DNA from: Paludibacteraceae bacterium | GTDB lineage: Bacteria; Bacteroidota; Bacteroidia; Bacteroidales; Paludibacteraceae | Assembly (NCBI GenBank): GCA_905236355.1 | Contig: CAJOPG010000134.1 | Coordinates: 4,595-68,594 of the forward strand | Length of the DNA: 64,000 bases | Direction of reading: 5' to 3' | Part shown: positions 8,315-14,681 of the stretch, piece after piece | Layout: each line of letters opens with the position of its first letter | Numbering within the stretch: the first letter of the stretch is position 1 | The notes under the pieces: generated by a model | Database searches by the model: none | Seen by the model: only the letters and a program-made list of their open reading frames with translations | Told to the model about the DNA's origin: nothing | Position numbers and translations under genes: made by a program

Positions 8315-11300
8315 TTATCTTACTTGTATAACAACAACTCTGCCCTTGTCATTCCGAGGCTGAAGCTGCAAAAAATAAATCCCTTTTGACACATTCAACG
8401 AAACAAATGTCTGCCCCTCTTCCAACTGCTGCTGCAACAACAACACACCATCTACACCAACCAAACGCATCATAGCAGATTCCGAAAGACGAATCCTAAC
8501 CGGAACACCCTCGCTCACAACCGTCGGAGTAATTTCTATTTCACTATCAGCCACAGCCGTTGCCACTATCGGACAAGACATTACACCCCGTTCCGCACTA
8601 ATAGTGAACAACTCGACTGAATACTCCGCACCAATCTCCAAACCATCCGGCACATACAGATACGGAGAATCGGCATTGTCAACAGCAACCGCATTCTTAT
8701 ACCATTGATATCGGGCATACTCAGTTTCACTGCTCTTTATTCCTATAACATCGCTCCAACGCTGTGATAACAAAGAAGACGGATATCTCACCATTATTTC
8801 TATAGGCAAAAGCACAGTGCCGTTCTCTTCGCTCTCAAAACGAAGTTGCAGGCTATACCAGCCGGGGATATTCGCAGGAATGGACAACAACATTTCCCCC
8901 TCTTGTAATGTGAATACAAACACCGTGTCCCTCCAACCTGCTACAATTGCTTCTTCAGAGAATTCCACCTTGCATCCGGATGCAGTGCCCGATGTCACCT
9001 TATAGGGAATGGCAACCGTTTTCTCATCACCACAGGGCATCAGTACTGAATCTGCCACAACCCTCAAGCGGGGAACCACTGTCAGATTCACGGTAAGCAC
9101 ACTGTCACAGCCTGCAGTTGACACAAAATTGTAAGTGTATGTATCAGTCTGTGTCATTGCCACTCCATCACACCAAAGCGTATCCCCTTCGGCAAGAACA
9201 GTGTCAAGCCTGACTTCAATCTTATCTACAAACTTTATCTTTAACTGATGAACACTGTCACAACCGGCAATGGTCTTCCCCTCCGTTATAATAGTAGTGT
9301 CGGAGGATATCATTCGGCTCTGATACACATAGAAGTCCCCCGCACAAAGCTGTATGGAATCAGTAACAACAGTATCACTTATGGCTGGTATTACCAACTC
9401 CAAATACTGAGTGCTGTCACACAATCCCACCGCAGCCCTCAAAGAAACAAGATAACGACCACCCGTCGCCGGAACGGATATCTCCGGCTCCCAATCGTAT
9501 GTCTGGGAACCCAACTCGCCCAAATCCCATAATACATAATCGGGCCTCGCCTCCGTATCTATATATCTGTCCTCTTTTATTATCTTGGTACGGATATGAC
9601 TCGTGTTTACCAACCTTACTATATTCTTGCAATCCTTCTGCTGCAAGGAATAAGAAATCTCCGGTATAGGAAAACGAGGAGTAGCACAAGCCGTCAGCAC
9701 AAACGAACAACCGGCATCAGTCGGATAAATACATTCTACGGCATAATGAGTGGTATCGTCATAAGCCACAGGGAAAATGCGTTGATCTGCATTTGCTAGC
9801 TTTTCTGACGGGTTGGTTTCCTTATACCAGTGATATTTGAACCCTTCGGGGGCTATGAACTGCTCTGTAAGATTATTCCCGCATTGGATACCTTCAATAC
9901 CGCCTTTAATACAATTAAGTGTAAAATAGGCATAACCATAGTGAACGGAAGCCGTACACCCGTAAGCGGAAAGAACCACTTGAATATGCCGCCCGTCATA
10001 CTCTGCCAAATTAAGACCTATTGTTGTCCAGTCTTTCCATATTACCTTACTGTCCCCGTCTTCAATCGTCCCAAAATACCAACCTTCCTTCTTTGCATTA
10101 AGCAAAGTGGCGGCAAAATCAACTGTTGTGCAATGGCTCAATGCCTCTCCGGTTTCCGCATCCACAATATCCAATGTAAAACGAGGCTGCTGCAACTCAT
10201 CATGAGTGGGCACCTGCAACACTACTGCATACTTCAATATCAAATTGGAGGCATCCGCTTTGTCCACCACATAATCGTAAGTAACCCGCGCCACTCGGGC
10301 ATTCTCCTCCGATTTACCAGCCACGGAAGCAGGACGACCACGCCAACCATTGATACGCACAGAGGCTATCTCACCCTCAGGAATAGTGCGAAGCGGGTTC
10401 ACATCGTTCCCATCCTCATCCTTGCTGTTATAGGTGCGGGCATCATACTCGCCGGGAAGATAATGAATAGTATGGTATGAATATGAAGCCGCATAACCAT
10501 AGTCCAACTTACCCGGTTTATACTTGTTCTTTGTGTAATCAGATGCCGTCGAATCAGAATAAGAACAATTGTCATCCGTCAGGTCAAGGTAATTGAAACA
10601 ATTGGAATCATACACAATTACCGGCGGAAACGCATACCAAACACTTGTATCACCCTGACAATATACCTGCAAACTGACATTATACACACCATGCTGCAAA
10701 GGAACCGTCACAGAAGAACCGATAATGTCGTCTATCACTTGATATTCGTTCTCATCCAAACGACTATATCTCAAAGCAAACCTCTCTGCAGACGAGTGCC
10801 AGGAAAAAGTTGCCATCGTACCATGCATATTAACTTCCAAATCAGTCGGCCGCCCGCAATTGTTCCGGGCTATTTGAATATTATCTATACAAGCACCGGG
10901 AAGTAATACCGCAGCAGTACTTGTGGTACGCCAAACGAAAAGCAAACGGTGGGGTGTTCCATCTGATGTTAAAGAAGACATACCATGCTGCCACGCAGAA
11001 GAGCCATACAAAGTATCTACCCCCTGCAACTCCAATTCATTATCCGTTATCCATTTGCGCCCTGAAATGGTCGAATTGCTGCCACATACAAAATCGTCAA
11101 AATAGCTCTCCGGAACCCAGCATACCTTTATGTAAGAACCCGGTGTACCCATACTGCGCCAGTCAAACACAATATCATAATTTCCGCTCTCCAATGTCAA
11201 TTCTCTCCATGCTATCATAATCTGATTGGTCTGCGCATAAGAAGCCGTCACACCACCATCTGAAGAAATATACAAACTATTCGTTCCTCCATTGCTGACC

Positions 11301-11476
11301 GCACTGCCGATATACCATAAGTTATTCCATATGATACTCGAGTTCTTAGGTGTATTCAGATTCCACTGTGCGTTTTCAACTGCATCTTCAAAATCACACT
11401 TATATGAGGATAATGCTTGCGCATTCATTCCCATAGCGAACAACAAAAGCAGCAATATGTTTGCTATTCTTTTCAT
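8315..11476 (-). CDS. Secreted 1053-aa surface protein, paralog of 11476..14598: N-terminal adhesin-like domain, Fn3-like domain, conserved central domain of unknown function, Cys-containing repeats, Ig-like region, T9SS type-A-like C-terminal sorting domain
   Basis: Signal peptide MKRIANILLLLLFAMGMNA|QA. Motifs YHTIHYLPGEYDARTY, QPRFTLDIVD, HYGYAYFTLNC, two ...GCDSV... repeats and RYQWYKNAVAV. The C-terminus MMRLVGVDGVLLLQQQLEEGQTFVSLNVSKGIYFLQLQPRNDKGRVVVIQVR resembles Por/T9SS C-terminal domains. The ATG overlaps the upstream stop by 1 nt. Confidence 0.85.
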   Translation of the reverse strand: MKRIANILLLLLFAMGMNAQALSSYKCDFEDAVENAQWNLNTPKNSSIIWNNLWYIGSAVSNGGTNSLYISSDGGVTASYAQTNQIMIAWRELTLESGNYDIVFDWRSMGTPGSYIKVCWVPESYFDDFVCGSNSTISGRKWITDNELELQGVDTLYGSSAWQHGMSSLTSDGTPHRLLFVWRTTSTAAVLLPGACIDNIQIARNNCGRPTDLEVNMHGTMATFSWHSSAERFALRYSRLDENEYQVIDDIIGSSVTVPLQHGVYNVSLQVYCQGDTSVWYAFPPVIVYDSNCFNYLDLTDDNCSYSDSTASDYTKNKYKPGKLDYGYAASYSYHTIHYLPGEYDARTYNSKDEDGNDVNPLRTIPEGEIASVRINGWRGRPASVAGKSEENARVARVTYDYVVDKADASNLILKYAVVLQVPTHDELQQPRFTLDIVDAETGEALSHCTTVDFAATLLNAKKEGWYFGTIEDGDSKVIWKDWTTIGLNLAEYDGRHIQVVLSAYGCTASVHYGYAYFTLNCIKGGIEGIQCGNNLTEQFIAPEGFKYHWYKETNPSEKLANADQRIFPVAYDDTTHYAVECIYPTDAGCSFVLTACATPRFPIPEISYSLQQKDCKNIVRLVNTSHIRTKIIKEDRYIDTEARPDYVLWDLGELGSQTYDWEPEISVPATGGRYLVSLRAAVGLCDSTQYLELVIPAISDTVVTDSIQLCAGDFYVYQSRMISSDTTIITEGKTIAGCDSVHQLKIKFVDKIEVRLDTVLAEGDTLWCDGVAMTQTDTYTYNFVSTAGCDSVLTVNLTVVPRLRVVADSVLMPCGDEKTVAIPYKVTSGTASGCKVEFSEEAIVAGWRDTVFVFTLQEGEMLLSIPANIPGWYSLQLRFESEENGTVLLPIEIMVRYPSSLLSQRWSDVIGIKSSETEYARYQWYKNAVAVDNADSPYLYVPDGLEIGAEYSVELFTISAERGVMSCPIVATAVADSEIEITPTVVSEGVPVRIRLSESAMMRLVGVDGVLLLQQQLEEGQTFVSLNVSKGIYFLQLQPRNDKGRVVVIQVR

Positions 11477-14400
11477 CAGTTATTGCGTCTTACTTTTCTA
11501 CCAAATATATCGTAGCGGATGTCATCCGTTTCAATGTATAACCGCTGATTTTCTAACACCTTCTTAACTCTCTTTGCCGAGGCATCCGAATTGTCAGGAA
11601 CAACCATATCAAACACAAACGGGCAGATTATCAGTGGTGTTCCATCTTCCAACTTTACCTCTACATAATATTCATTGGTTGCATCATTTAGTCCGTCGGC
11701 ATGTATCCAAGAACCCGTTGCACCCTCTATCGCCTTATCATTACAATACCACTGATAGGAACTGAAACGGAACCCTCCGTTATAGTTCTCGTTCAGTATG
11801 GCAAGTACATTATCCCATTTTGCCTTTACTATACTCTTAGGCAGATTAACGACAAACGGAACATACGACATCTGCGGGTCACACCATGGTGTAACAATAG
11901 CAACCTCCGCCTCCATATTGCCCGAAGGAATCCCATTCAACGGGATGGCCAATTCCATGTCCGGTTGGTCCGCCTCAAACTCATAGTCTTCCCCTATTGC
12001 CGGTATATATACCCTTATCTTATCCGCATATTCCGAGTTGCTCACCTTCAAGACAAAGGCATCTTCATCTGCACAAATAAGGGCAGAATGAAGCGATACT
12101 GCAAATTCGGGCAACGCGGCAAGATGTAAATGCACTATTGAATCACACCCCGTCTGTTCGGATGTAAAAGTAGCAATATAATCGTTCCCCGCCCTGTTTA
12201 TCTCCATCCCGCCAAACCGATAGGAACCTCCTGCGCAAATAGTATCATATAATACTGAGTCACGAATTGCCGTTACATTCAGCAACTGATGCACAATACT
12301 GTCACAACCCGTCCATGTCTTAAGTGTATCAACCATTGAATAGTTGCCTACCGCAATATTCTTGTATAAGGAGTCGGCCCATAAGAAAGACTGGCTTCCA
12401 TCTTGCAGCTCACATATCATTGTATCCGCCAAGTAGGTATCCACCTTGTCTATTGCCGGAACATTTATTGTGACATTCCGCACACTGTCTGCATACTCTT
12501 TCCCCCGCACCCAATTGCTTGCATGTAGCGAGTACACAAAGGTTTCTCCCTCATTAGAACAAGGTATATACCAACCATCATAGTTCAACTGATCGGTCTG
12601 GGTTCCATCAGGCAATTCCCATAATGCCGTCATCAGCTTCATATCATACCTGTCTTCTATCTCACCTGTAATCTGATTATGCAGTTGCACATGACTCGCA
12701 TTTCTTACAATAATCCCATTCTGGCAATTTTCAGGAACCCACTCCCACTGAATCTCAGCCTTAGGAGTATGCGGACGGGCTGTGGCTTCCATCAAATAAT
12801 CGCACTCACTGTTAGACGCATATATGATACGACAAAAATAGTTGGTCGTGTCATTTTCATTCACTTCAAACTTATAGTCGGTTGACAGAATATTTTCCGG
12901 TTCTCCTTCTTTGTACCACTCATAGTTGAACCCGTTCGGGGCGGTGAAGACATTAGTCGAAGAATCTTCCCCCCATGGGATACCCTCCATCTCGGAAGAT
13001 ATACAATTTAGCGTAAAATAGCAATAACCGTAATGACCGCCTTGATCGCAATCGTATGAAGTTATAATAATTGTCAGTGTAGAATCAATCCAATCATCCA
13101 AATTAAGTCCTACCGCGCGCCAATCTTGCCACCAATTGCCTTTCTCTTTATTTTCATACCACAAACTCATGTATTGCGGATCGTCCTGTTTCTCGGCTTT
13201 TGTCGGTGTATGGAAGTCCACCGTACCACATTTTATATCAATGGGTTCGCCTGCAGCATTTAATATATCTATTGTCAGGCGCGGTTGGTCTTGTTCTGGG
13301 TGGTCGCCGGTTTCTTGTAGCACCATAGCATACTGAATCAACAAAATCGACCCCATATTTCCGGGAACAGTATAATTAAAGGTGATACTTTCATATTGTG
13401 AACTGGTTTCCCAGTTGCCTAATCTAACAGAGCCAAATGCACCTTCGGGAACTGTTTTCAGACTGATTGGATTCCCGTTTTTATCTTTCGTTCCTATAGT
13501 TCGCACATCATATTCATCCTGCATATAATGGGTTGTATGGCGACTTTTCTCCGAAGCATACCCCCAGTCCACTTTTTCATAACCTGACGGAGACTTGCCC
13601 GTTCTTGCATTCCAAGTACCGGTTTCATAAGTCGCTCCATACATGTTCAAAGCATCAAAACAATCGGTTTCATATACATACAATGGCTTGATGTAGTAGT
13701 ATATAGTGGTGTCCGCCCCAACTATTCCCCGCATCCAGAACTCATAAGCCCCAAACTCCATCTGATACTTAGAGAATACAGAGTTGGCTGTTTCACCTTC
13801 TTCCCAAGCTCCCGTTTGTCCTGAATCCGACAGTTTACGATAACGGACTTCGTACTTATCGGCCTCGAATGCCTCCCAATACAGATTGGAATAACCTTGC
13901 AAATAATCTACATGTGCGTTCTGCGGCCATTCTGATTCCGGAGACTTGGACAATTGAATATTATCCAGCATTATACTTGAAGGGGTCGGATTTGTCTTGG
14001 CAGTATTCAACCACTCTATCAACAGGGACAAGTTACGCGTCGGATGTTGTACATTTTCCCATGTCGCGCTTATAGAAAATTTGGTTTGAATATGTTGCCA
14101 TTCTTCCTCACCCGAGAGGCGAACCACATTCTCGCCCATTATTGAAAAAGATTTGCTGTTCTGAAGAAAAGCAGGTTCTCCACTCCCACTCCGGCAGTAT
14201 AAGTCAGACCCATTTTGTGAGGTTATCAACACCCTTACATACCCTTCATCCCCATTACCCTGTCCTTTCCAGTCAAAGGCGAAGTCATAATCACCTTTTT
14301 CCAACTGCAATTCACGATAGGCTAAAACAATATTGGCAGAAGACGGATTATATACAGCGGCAGTCGCATTGGAAGATATATACATTGCGTGTGAACCATC

Positions 14401-14598
14401 GTAAGCATCCGCCGTCCCCACTAACCACAGATTGTCGGTAGGAGCACTTTGATTCAGCACCCACTGTGAATTTTCCGTATCGTCTTCAAAGCCACAAAAA
14501 TAAGGGAGGTCTGACATTGAAACAGGAGCAGCATGCGTGCAGAAATATACAGGCACACAAAGCCCCCATACTACTATCAACAGACCTAACCTTTTCAT
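11476..14598 (-). CDS. Secreted 1040-aa surface protein, paralog of 8315..11476, with the same domain order but no T9SS-like tail; ends in a different short C-terminal motif
   Basis: Signal peptide MKRLGLLIVVWGLCVPVYFCTHA. Motifs RHTTHYMQDEYDVRTI, QPRLTIDILN, HYGYCYFTLNC, two ...GCDSIVH... repeats and SYQWYCNDKAIEGATG. The C-terminus is KVLENQRLYIETDDIRYDIFGRKVRRNN. Stop TGA 11478-11476 overlaps the ATG 11476-11474 of the next gene (TGATG). Confidence 0.85.
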   Translation of the reverse strand: MKRLGLLIVVWGLCVPVYFCTHAAPVSMSDLPYFCGFEDDTENSQWVLNQSAPTDNLWLVGTADAYDGSHAMYISSNATAAVYNPSSANIVLAYRELQLEKGDYDFAFDWKGQGNGDEGYVRVLITSQNGSDLYCRSGSGEPAFLQNSKSFSIMGENVVRLSGEEEWQHIQTKFSISATWENVQHPTRNLSLLIEWLNTAKTNPTPSSIMLDNIQLSKSPESEWPQNAHVDYLQGYSNLYWEAFEADKYEVRYRKLSDSGQTGAWEEGETANSVFSKYQMEFGAYEFWMRGIVGADTTIYYYIKPLYVYETDCFDALNMYGATYETGTWNARTGKSPSGYEKVDWGYASEKSRHTTHYMQDEYDVRTIGTKDKNGNPISLKTVPEGAFGSVRLGNWETSSQYESITFNYTVPGNMGSILLIQYAMVLQETGDHPEQDQPRLTIDILNAAGEPIDIKCGTVDFHTPTKAEKQDDPQYMSLWYENKEKGNWWQDWRAVGLNLDDWIDSTLTIIITSYDCDQGGHYGYCYFTLNCISSEMEGIPWGEDSSTNVFTAPNGFNYEWYKEGEPENILSTDYKFEVNENDTTNYFCRIIYASNSECDYLMEATARPHTPKAEIQWEWVPENCQNGIIVRNASHVQLHNQITGEIEDRYDMKLMTALWELPDGTQTDQLNYDGWYIPCSNEGETFVYSLHASNWVRGKEYADSVRNVTINVPAIDKVDTYLADTMICELQDGSQSFLWADSLYKNIAVGNYSMVDTLKTWTGCDSIVHQLLNVTAIRDSVLYDTICAGGSYRFGGMEINRAGNDYIATFTSEQTGCDSIVHLHLAALPEFAVSLHSALICADEDAFVLKVSNSEYADKIRVYIPAIGEDYEFEADQPDMELAIPLNGIPSGNMEAEVAIVTPWCDPQMSYVPFVVNLPKSIVKAKWDNVLAILNENYNGGFRFSSYQWYCNDKAIEGATGSWIHADGLNDATNEYYVEVKLEDGTPLIICPFVFDMVVPDNSDASAKRVKKVLENQRLYIETDDIRYDIFGRKVRRNN

Positions 14599-14649: not shown

Positions 14650-14681
14650 CAAAAATAAGCGTTTTTTTTTTTTTGTACAAA
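14650..14681 (-). promoter_or_regulatory. Bacteroidetes-type promoter (-33 TTTG, -7 TAnnTTTG) for the surface-protein gene cluster
   Basis: The minus strand reads tatTTTGtacAAAAAAAAAAAAAcgctTATTTTTGcagcg. The TTTG is at 14681-14678 and TATTTTTG at 14657-14650, with a 20-nt spacer. The box lies 52 nt upstream of ATG 14598. Confidence 0.55.
14662..14674. repeat. Homopolymer T13 (A13 on the coding strand) inside the promoter spacer
   Basis: Direct count in gTTTTTTTTTTTTTg at 14661-14675. It is the longest homopolymer I noticed in the window. Confidence 0.95.

Follow-up and report, generated by a model that had tools for sequence, protein, structure and literature searches.

The two genes considered here lie next to each other on the minus strand of a 64,000-nucleotide stretch (the window) of contig CAJOPG010000134.1, positions 4,595 to 68,594, from the Paludibacteraceae bacterium assembly GCA_905236355.1. 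Gene 1 (11476..14598) was called as an open reading frame (ORF) for a protein of 1040 amino acids (aa), P0001, whose full-length AlphaFold2 model is all-beta, and gene 2 (8315..11476) encodes P0002, a protein of 1053 aa that has the same domain order in BLASTP alignment and a long C-terminal domain (CTD). As reported in an initial annotation of this region, the stop codon of gene 1 and the start codon of gene 2 overlap as TGATG, base 11476 being common to both ORFs. The same annotation ascribed one architecture to both products, and BLASTP aligned P0001 with P0002 over 1019 columns at 29% identity (E 1e-107), collinearly from the N-terminus to about residue 1000; because of this E value and collinearity the shared architecture is far beyond chance, and P0001 and P0002 are true full-length paralogs. 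A third gene on the same strand, encoding a giant surface protein (2..8113; 2997 aa in the contig; identified from its ORF, by hidden Markov model [HMM] and by CTD score), starts at 8113, the expected 201 nucleotides (nt) downstream of gene 2, and runs off the window.

Both paralogs contain a central domain of about 235 aa, located at aa 313-545 of P0001 (12964..13662, minus strand; AlphaFold2 model, fold searches and profile alignment) and at aa 291-534 of P0002 (9875..10606, minus strand; HMM E 2.6e-73 and BLASTP alignment). This is the domain that bears the six motifs quoted initially, all of which were found in the pairwise alignment at residues ~353-533 of P0001 and ~334-523 of P0002. In P0001 it carries four invariant Cys together with RHT, LGNW, YAxVL, QPR, DW and DC..H.GY.Y. 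Searched against Pfam, NCBIfam and PDB sequences, either as single sequences or as a profile of 120 sequences (A1), the central domain gave no match even at E 10, and the whole proteins and every sub-domain gave only sub-threshold Ig_7/Ig_2 matches and chance matches against Pfam and NCBIfam at E up to 10. AlphaFold2 modelled the domain from A1 with a predicted local distance difference test score (pLDDT) of 92 and a predicted template-modelling (TM) score of 0.88, as a beta-sandwich that has some 14 strands and loops that are long but ordered. On this model, the central domain is a disulfide-stabilised, elaborated jelly-roll beta-sandwich of the jelly-roll/galactose-binding-like class.

Its structural neighbours belong to several groups. 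Carbohydrate-binding modules (CBMs) share the jelly-roll core at Z 8.5-9.9 (the porphyran-binding 8xmz, Z 9.9; CBM61 2xom, Z 9.0; CBM16 2zew, Z 8.5; CBM4 4bj0), with a root-mean-square deviation of 3.4-4.1 Å over 127-142 residues. MAM domains match at Z 7.8-9.2 over 133-163 residues, including those of RPTPmu (2c9a, Z 9.2; 2v5y), neuropilin (5l73, Z 8.2) and meprin (7uab), and a further MAM match was obtained with 8yt7 (Z 8.6). The K1 cleaved-adhesin domain of the Lys-gingipain Kgp (4itc) was recovered at Z 8.1, together with C-terminal lectin-like domains of a phage tailspike and of Cry/Vip toxins, and the GH16 and PL7 enzymes match slightly lower (Z 7.4-8.2) over longer aligned stretches. 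Foldseek agreed with these VIA fold matches, and its search of viral models returned only generic, CBM-like tail-fibre matches with a TM score of 0.37 or less. Membership of a CAZy CBM family was not found in Pfam, NCBIfam or PDB sequences at E 10, the likeness being one of fold only, and the MAM family PF00629 gave no match at E 10 for P0001 aa 1-230, aa 300-560 or the P0002 equivalents. The idea that the central domain might be a recognisable duplicate of the N-terminal beta-sandwich of the same protein was rejected, because profile-profile comparison with hhalign detected no relationship (probability 0.1%).

A profile search of 1.8 billion representative proteins identified 4137 with the central domain at E <=0.001, 872 of them at <=1e-30. 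The domain's position along the chain varies between proteins, whose lengths run from 270 to 2900 aa, and the proteins that carry it are mostly type IX secretion system (T9SS) cargo in Bacteroidia. The earlier description of the domain as unassignable therefore stands as far as described sequence families are concerned, none of which was matched, and needs qualifying in two respects: the fold is a common jelly-roll, and the family to which the domain belongs exceeds 4000 representative proteins. The central domain is not an orphan; as a sequence family it is new, whereas its fold is known. ESM-Atlas models related at TM 0.70-0.78 came mostly from Bacteroidota proteins, several of them with CHU_C (type B CTD), PKD or Ig_7 domains, and no Pfam 38.1 family was assigned to the Atlas clusters formed by the central domain alone. 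PF26689 ('FIDD') was annotated on 66% of an Atlas cluster with the same fold as the central domain and on 10% of another cluster, near the two-Cys repeat described below; a literature search on the FIDD domain, including its occurrence with type IX secretion, found nothing relevant. Within the family Paludibacteraceae the domain is present in 82 of 151 genomes, and in a phylum-wide sample of 301 genomes only 17 carried it, all of class Bacteroidia.

The signal peptide of distant members, which are about 630-1270 aa long, mostly leads straight into the central domain, and this domain begins with the motif C-P-x-N-I-x-F-E-x-G-x-F-x-x-W; a weak Ig_7-like domain often comes after it, and the C-terminus is in most cases a type B-like CTD. 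A domain placed behind the signal peptide of a protein with such a CTD fits what would be expected of a distal binding head carried by a stalk whose anchor is at the C-terminus. Four cysteines are kept across the whole range of the family, as are R-H-T, L-G-N, Y-A-V-V, a His before Q-P, a Trp and D-C....H-x-G-Y-x-Y....C. The motif EYD(V/A)RT, first listed as conserved, occurs in both paralogs, but the E-x-D-x-R-T block is specific to the subfamily of ~1050 aa, and distant members show a deletion of the E63/D65/R67 block of the window proteins. A third copy of the domain was observed in the genome that provided the window (contig C82:7349-9670, plus strand), at the start of an ORF that runs off the contig end. 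The counterpart of that copy in a species of the same genus (G022, C5:76517-77452) lies within an open frame of 4130 aa, which indicates that the central domain also heads giant proteins.

Modelled at full length (pLDDT 89.5), P0001 consists of beta structure throughout and comprises, after the signal peptide, an N-terminal beta-sandwich, an FN3-like domain, the central jelly-roll, two Ig-like domains, two small two-Cys repeats, two further beta-sandwiches (aa 833-1000) and a three-strand tail. The N-terminal beta-sandwich (aa 28-222; 13933..14517, minus strand), defined on the AlphaFold2 model and without a Pfam match, is homologous to a module of the giant protein at aa 1992-2192 (HMM E 2.6e-18). 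The FN3-like domain (aa 225-308; 13675..13926, minus strand) has seven strands in the model, and homologs over this region carry PF00041 or bear the name fibronectin type III. The two modelled Ig-like domains (aa 548-713; 12460..12957, minus strand) include a first one that is weakly Ig_7-like, PF19081 scoring 23.2 bits at P0001 aa 549-599 and 17.0 bits in P0002 with a cut-off of 27.3 bits. The two-Cys repeats were located by HMM at aa 716-776 and 780-831 of P0001 ('GCDSI'; 12106..12453, minus strand; five short strands each in the model) and at aa 699-751 and 751-804 of P0002 ('GCDSV'; 9065..9382, minus strand). Two GCDS(I/V) repeats per protein had been placed correctly in the initial annotation, their unit being 48-61 aa by HMM instead of ~45 aa. 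The repeat has no match in the Pfam library searched, even in an 858-aa protein of the same genome (C5:5577-8153, minus strand; L036:178-2754) that consists almost wholly of about 11 tandem copies and a long CTD, an arrangement that marks it as an independent stalk-forming module. The best full-length PDB matches of P0001 are surface proteins made of Ig strings, the T9SS-dependent grappling hook GhpA among them, together with the RPTPmu ectodomain, which is of MAM-Ig-FN type.

The N-termini of P0001 and P0002 (MKR followed by a hydrophobic helix) are signal-peptide-like by sequence inspection, and in the P0001 model a helix at residues 3-14 with low pLDDT is followed by the folded domain. The CTD models TIGR04183 and PF18962, with a cut-off of 23 bits, were used to examine the C-termini. 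P0002 gave a weak match to the long type A T9SS CTD (8318..8554, minus strand; 16.7-20.4 bits); it aligns with the CTDs of its relatives over their whole length, and most family members end in this form, the relatives' TIGR04183 scores being 29.4, 26.8 and 26.4 bits. P0001 ends in a short tail (aa ~1005-1040; 11479..11586, minus strand) with the pattern K-x-L-x-N-G-x-L-x-I-x(3-6)-G-x-x-Y-x-x-x-G-x-x-(V/I), a probable short T9SS sorting signal. The same ending is found in both genes of the sister-species locus L001, in the first gene of L018 and in 55 of 106 close homologs. About 25 further ORFs in the 1.86-Mb genome share it according to the tail HMM, most of them with a signal-peptide-like MKK leader. 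Examples are C97:3405-4028, C5:1988-2890, C91:6782-7465 and C35:14705-17923, and the genome-wide pattern of ~30 aa can be written K-x-I/L-x-N/D-G-Q-L/V-x-I-x-x-x-G-x-x-Y/F-N-x-x-G-x-x-V/I-K. From its sequence, the tail looks like a genome-wide short C-terminal sorting signal that exists beside at least 23 long type A CTDs.

Short T9SS CTDs of 40-51 aa, which carry conserved Gly/Tyr motifs and end in a basic residue, are known from signal-peptide proteins of Prevotella intermedia, for which mass spectrometry demonstrated cleavage and glycosylation (Ye et al. 2025, PMC11969387), and we infer by analogy that the P0001 tail may be equivalent to them. The cargo described in that study resembles the window pair in its signal peptide, strings of beta-sandwich and FN3 domains, C-terminal T9SS signal and occurrence in Bacteroidales, and its long (~70-80 aa) and short (~40-50 aa) signal forms have a probable counterpart in the window pair; unlike it, the window proteins have no choice-of-anchor J or other NCBIfam match, and the central domain is not described there. 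The genome encodes T9SS machinery, with SprA/Sov on contig C50 (SprA_N PF14349, 626.5 bits), and at least 23 ORFs with a long CTD above the cut-off, including the giant and the C10 peptidase discussed below. Because of this machinery and these ORFs, both paralogs are probably T9SS cargo with signals of different length, short in P0001 and long type A in P0002.

The history of the pair was examined in a maximum-likelihood tree of 40 pair members from 20 loci, namely the window and 19 loci of relatives. The first genes of the window, of L001 and of L002 form one clade and the second genes another, each with a Shimodaira-Hasegawa-like approximate likelihood ratio test (SH-aLRT) value of 100, so that the duplication is older than the split of the two genera involved. 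The deepest split of the tree, which is weakly supported (SH-aLRT 51), separates the two members of the pair at 14 of the 20 loci, in one order or the other, and only one locus (L010) represents a recent duplicate. Within the genus, orthologs are 42-45% identical, whereas the neighbouring HtpG is 79% identical; fast evolution of the paralogs fits exposed surface proteins. HtpG is not adjacent to the pair in G022, and the flanks differ between genomes. A family-wide search found same-strand central-domain pairs spaced about 3.1-3.5 kb apart in many Paludibacteraceae genomes. One genome (G093) has 17 domain matches forming at least seven tandem pairs on contigs C16, C34, C42, C45, C46, C53 and C65, a large expansion of the cassette, and a locus of another genus (L019, G053:C1:1436000-1455999) has a shorter form of the system, with proteins of 771, 704, 769 and 700 aa followed by one of 1441 aa, in which the proteins of ~770 aa with the central domain alternate with proteins of ~700 aa that have two-Cys repeats only.

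The three-gene association first proposed was recovered in part, a giant-like gene (about 2870-3260 aa) adjoining the pair in 12 of the 19 relatives' loci and missing from seven. It lies directly downstream in eight of them, downstream with a small intervening ORF in two, and between the paralogs in another two (L015 and L016). In the tightest loci the pair and the giant overlap by 4 nt or are separated by 2, 16, 41, 54 or 126 nt; the stop/start overlap of genes 1 and 2 is not conserved, relatives having gaps of 2-225 nt. The cluster is larger than first proposed and comprises the pair, the giant, a C10 peptidase and an OmpA-family gene. The giant protein consists of alternating MAM-like and FN3 modules and ends in two degenerate two-Cys repeats and a long CTD (39.7 bits). 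Outside the window on the same contig and strand (G000 C134:788-3622, L022) lies the gene of a C10 cysteine peptidase of the streptopain/interpain family (944 aa; PF01640, E 8.5e-67), with an I69 propeptide, one two-Cys repeat and a long T9SS CTD, and downstream of it that of an OmpA-family outer-membrane protein (C134:1-783, minus strand). The order giant, C10 peptidase, OmpA-family gene recurs in G022 (L001, same genus) and G143 (L002, another genus). Besides the window's contig, an OmpA-family gene is present in seven or eight of the 19 relatives' loci, as a form of ~590 aa in five or six beyond G022 and G143, and it sits between the paralogs in L017 and L018.

Upstream of the cluster, the only exact Bacteroidetes -7 box (TATTTTTG; 14650..14657, minus strand) lies 51 nt before the ATG of gene 1, and a sequence scan showed it to be preceded by an A13 run (14662-14674, minus strand). 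Runs of A9-A13 within about 5 nt upstream of TAnnTTTG were observed before the first gene at four of the 20 pair loci (window, L003, L013 and L018), a hint that homopolymer spacers may be a recurring feature of pair promoters. The 201-nt gap between gene 2 and the giant (8114..8314, minus strand) has no exact -7 box of the form TAnnTTTG, in agreement with the initial remark that it lacks a clear promoter box, and shows no convincing terminator, its RNA fold being not unusual (z-score 0.45). Scans for sigma-70 and terminator consensus sequences gave results at chance level and were uninformative. Co-transcription of the cluster is plausible from these sequence features and fits the tight gene spacing in relatives.

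The interpretation that we favour, with moderate confidence, is that P0001 and P0002 are T9SS adhesin-like surface proteins whose central jelly-roll is a ligand-binding head, and that they form the upstream part of a conserved cluster that may build one surface assembly. Its observed basis is the paralogy, the domain fold, the breadth of the family, the synteny, the sorting signals and the presence of a T9SS. The paralogs would be exported via Sec and sorted by the T9SS as all-beta, 'beads-on-a-string' proteins of the cell surface. Their N-terminal head would consist of three beta-sandwich domains (MAM-like, FN3-like and central), and their stalk of the Ig-like domains, the two small two-Cys repeats and two more beta-sandwiches, with the C-terminal sorting signal last. 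The central domain would most likely be the module with which the adhesin binds a glycan or protein ligand. The promoter at ~14650 probably drives expression of the cluster, whose products probably build one surface assembly; in it they would form a physical complex, the C10 enzyme would mature cluster proteins by proteolysis and the OmpA-family protein would serve as the anchor.

Known adhesins and binding modules offer partial parallels. The central domain differs from CBMs in having 5-10% identity to them, no profile match, about 100 additional residues, long ordered loops and two likely disulfides. The Porphyromonas gingivalis cleaved-adhesin domains K1/K2/K3 and HagA (4itc; 143 residues aligned) are jelly-roll adhesin modules exported by the T9SS; a cysteine protease is encoded with them, as a C10 protease is in the cluster of the window pair. 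No kinship with these domains emerged at the sequence level, and the protease of the cluster has its own C10 gene and is not a fused C25 gingipain.

Several observations weigh against this interpretation. The fold matches of the central domain are generic, with Z <=10, identity <=12% and 127-170 of 261 residues aligned, and therefore show that a fold is shared without making the domain a member of any of these families. Most of the residues kept in all members are polar (R-H-T, N, H, Q, D, H, Y, Y) and would also suit a catalytic site. The CTD of P0002 scores under the curated cut-off, and the tail of P0001 has no TIGR04183 match. The giant is absent from seven relatives' loci and the C10 peptidase from most of those sampled, so that a fixed complex is not universal, and the 201-nt gap could hold an unrecognised promoter.

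Among the alternatives, the one that survives best, albeit as an unlikely one, is that the pair, alone or together with the giant, builds a structural coat such as fibrils or a lattice of S-layer type, in which the central domain makes MAM-like protein-protein contacts and does not bind an external ligand. Tannerella forsythia has such an S-layer pair in TfsA and TfsB, T9SS type A cargo that are encoded in tandem, exceed 1000 aa, are distantly related to each other and act jointly at the surface. The window pair resembles them as tandem paralogs of more than 1000 aa that are probably T9SS cargo. A coat would agree with the finding of two diverged paralogs side by side in most loci, which span the deepest split in 14 of 20 cases with a single recent duplicate, and with the fast evolution and many copies per genome (17 matches in G093), which fit an exposed structure. 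MAM domains, mediators of oligomerisation, are among the best and longest fold matches, and an archaeal S-layer is among the full-length structure matches of P0001. The likeness to MAM proteins extends to four conserved cysteines, to MAM-Ig-FN-like arrays and to the match of the full-length P0001 model with the RPTPmu ectodomain, but MAM domains are eukaryotic and about 170 aa long, and neither the central nor the N-terminal domain has a Pfam MAM match. Moreover, PDB sequence searches, which did not include a comparison with TfsA and TfsB themselves, revealed no similarity to any solved S-layer protein, the split on which the paralog argument depends is the weakly supported one, and the central domain also occurs singly in the proteins of about 630-1270 aa with a type B-like CTD, which are partnerless or only sometimes in tandem.

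Less probable still, in our judgement, is that the central domain is a catalytic jelly-roll, either a lyase or hydrolase like PL7 or GH16 or another enzyme, which would make the proteins surface-tethered enzymes instead of adhesins. Its ~235 aa correspond to the size of GH16 and PL7 catalytic domains, as opposed to the 130-160 aa typical of CBMs, and these enzymes are among the longest alignments (5nbo, Z 8.2, 161 aa; 8xph, Z 8.2, 164 aa; 4be3, Z 7.7, 170 aa; 5zqi, Z 7.9). The residues that remain invariant in very distant members (RHT, LGN, H, QP, DC, H-x-G-Y-x-Y) are polar or aromatic, as an active site might require. However, the domain has no sequence match to any glycoside hydrolase, polysaccharide lyase or peptidase family in Pfam, NCBIfam or PDB, it lacks the GH16 ExDxxE motif and the PL7 signature motifs as such, the enzymes score lower than CBM and MAM folds, and the E63/D65/R67 block is dispensed with in distant members. 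Finally, it is very improbable that the genes are independent adjacent members of an expanding variable-antigen family, functionally linked neither to each other nor to the giant: the incomplete presence of the giant, the varying gene order (L015 to L018), the non-conserved stop/start overlap and the differing flanks, with HtpG not adjacent in G022, would suit such independence, but pairing is nearly universal in the sampled loci, the giant, of very rare gene size, adjoins the pair in 12 of the 19, intergenic gaps are often below 60 nt, and all cluster products have sorting signals, four of them sharing the two-Cys repeat.

A doubtful proposal, which we put forward as speculation, goes further: the five-gene cluster might encode an undescribed, proteolytically matured and peptidoglycan-tethered heteromeric surface organelle (a fibril or coat) of gut and rumen Bacteroidales, present in several fast-evolving and possibly phase-variable copies per genome, in which the central jelly-roll would be the specificity-determining or even catalytic element. 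In any case the proteins belong to a known class, that of uncharacterised T9SS adhesin-like cargo, and are not categorically new.

In many Bacteroidota of gut, rumen and mouth the cell surface is dominated by T9SS cargo, and most of the large cargo are annotated as hypothetical. The present analysis defines a widespread domain family, with at least 4000 representative proteins and no Pfam or NCBIfam model in the libraries searched, and provides a confident fold together with universally conserved residues that are open to mutation. With this genome, a second lineage probably combines T9SS signals of both lengths, short and long, down to the two members of a single pair of paralogs. The recurring cluster ties the central domain to three further products (giant surface protein, C10 protease and putative OmpA-type anchor), and an attachment or coat structure of uncultured rumen and gut Paludibacteraceae thereby becomes directly testable.

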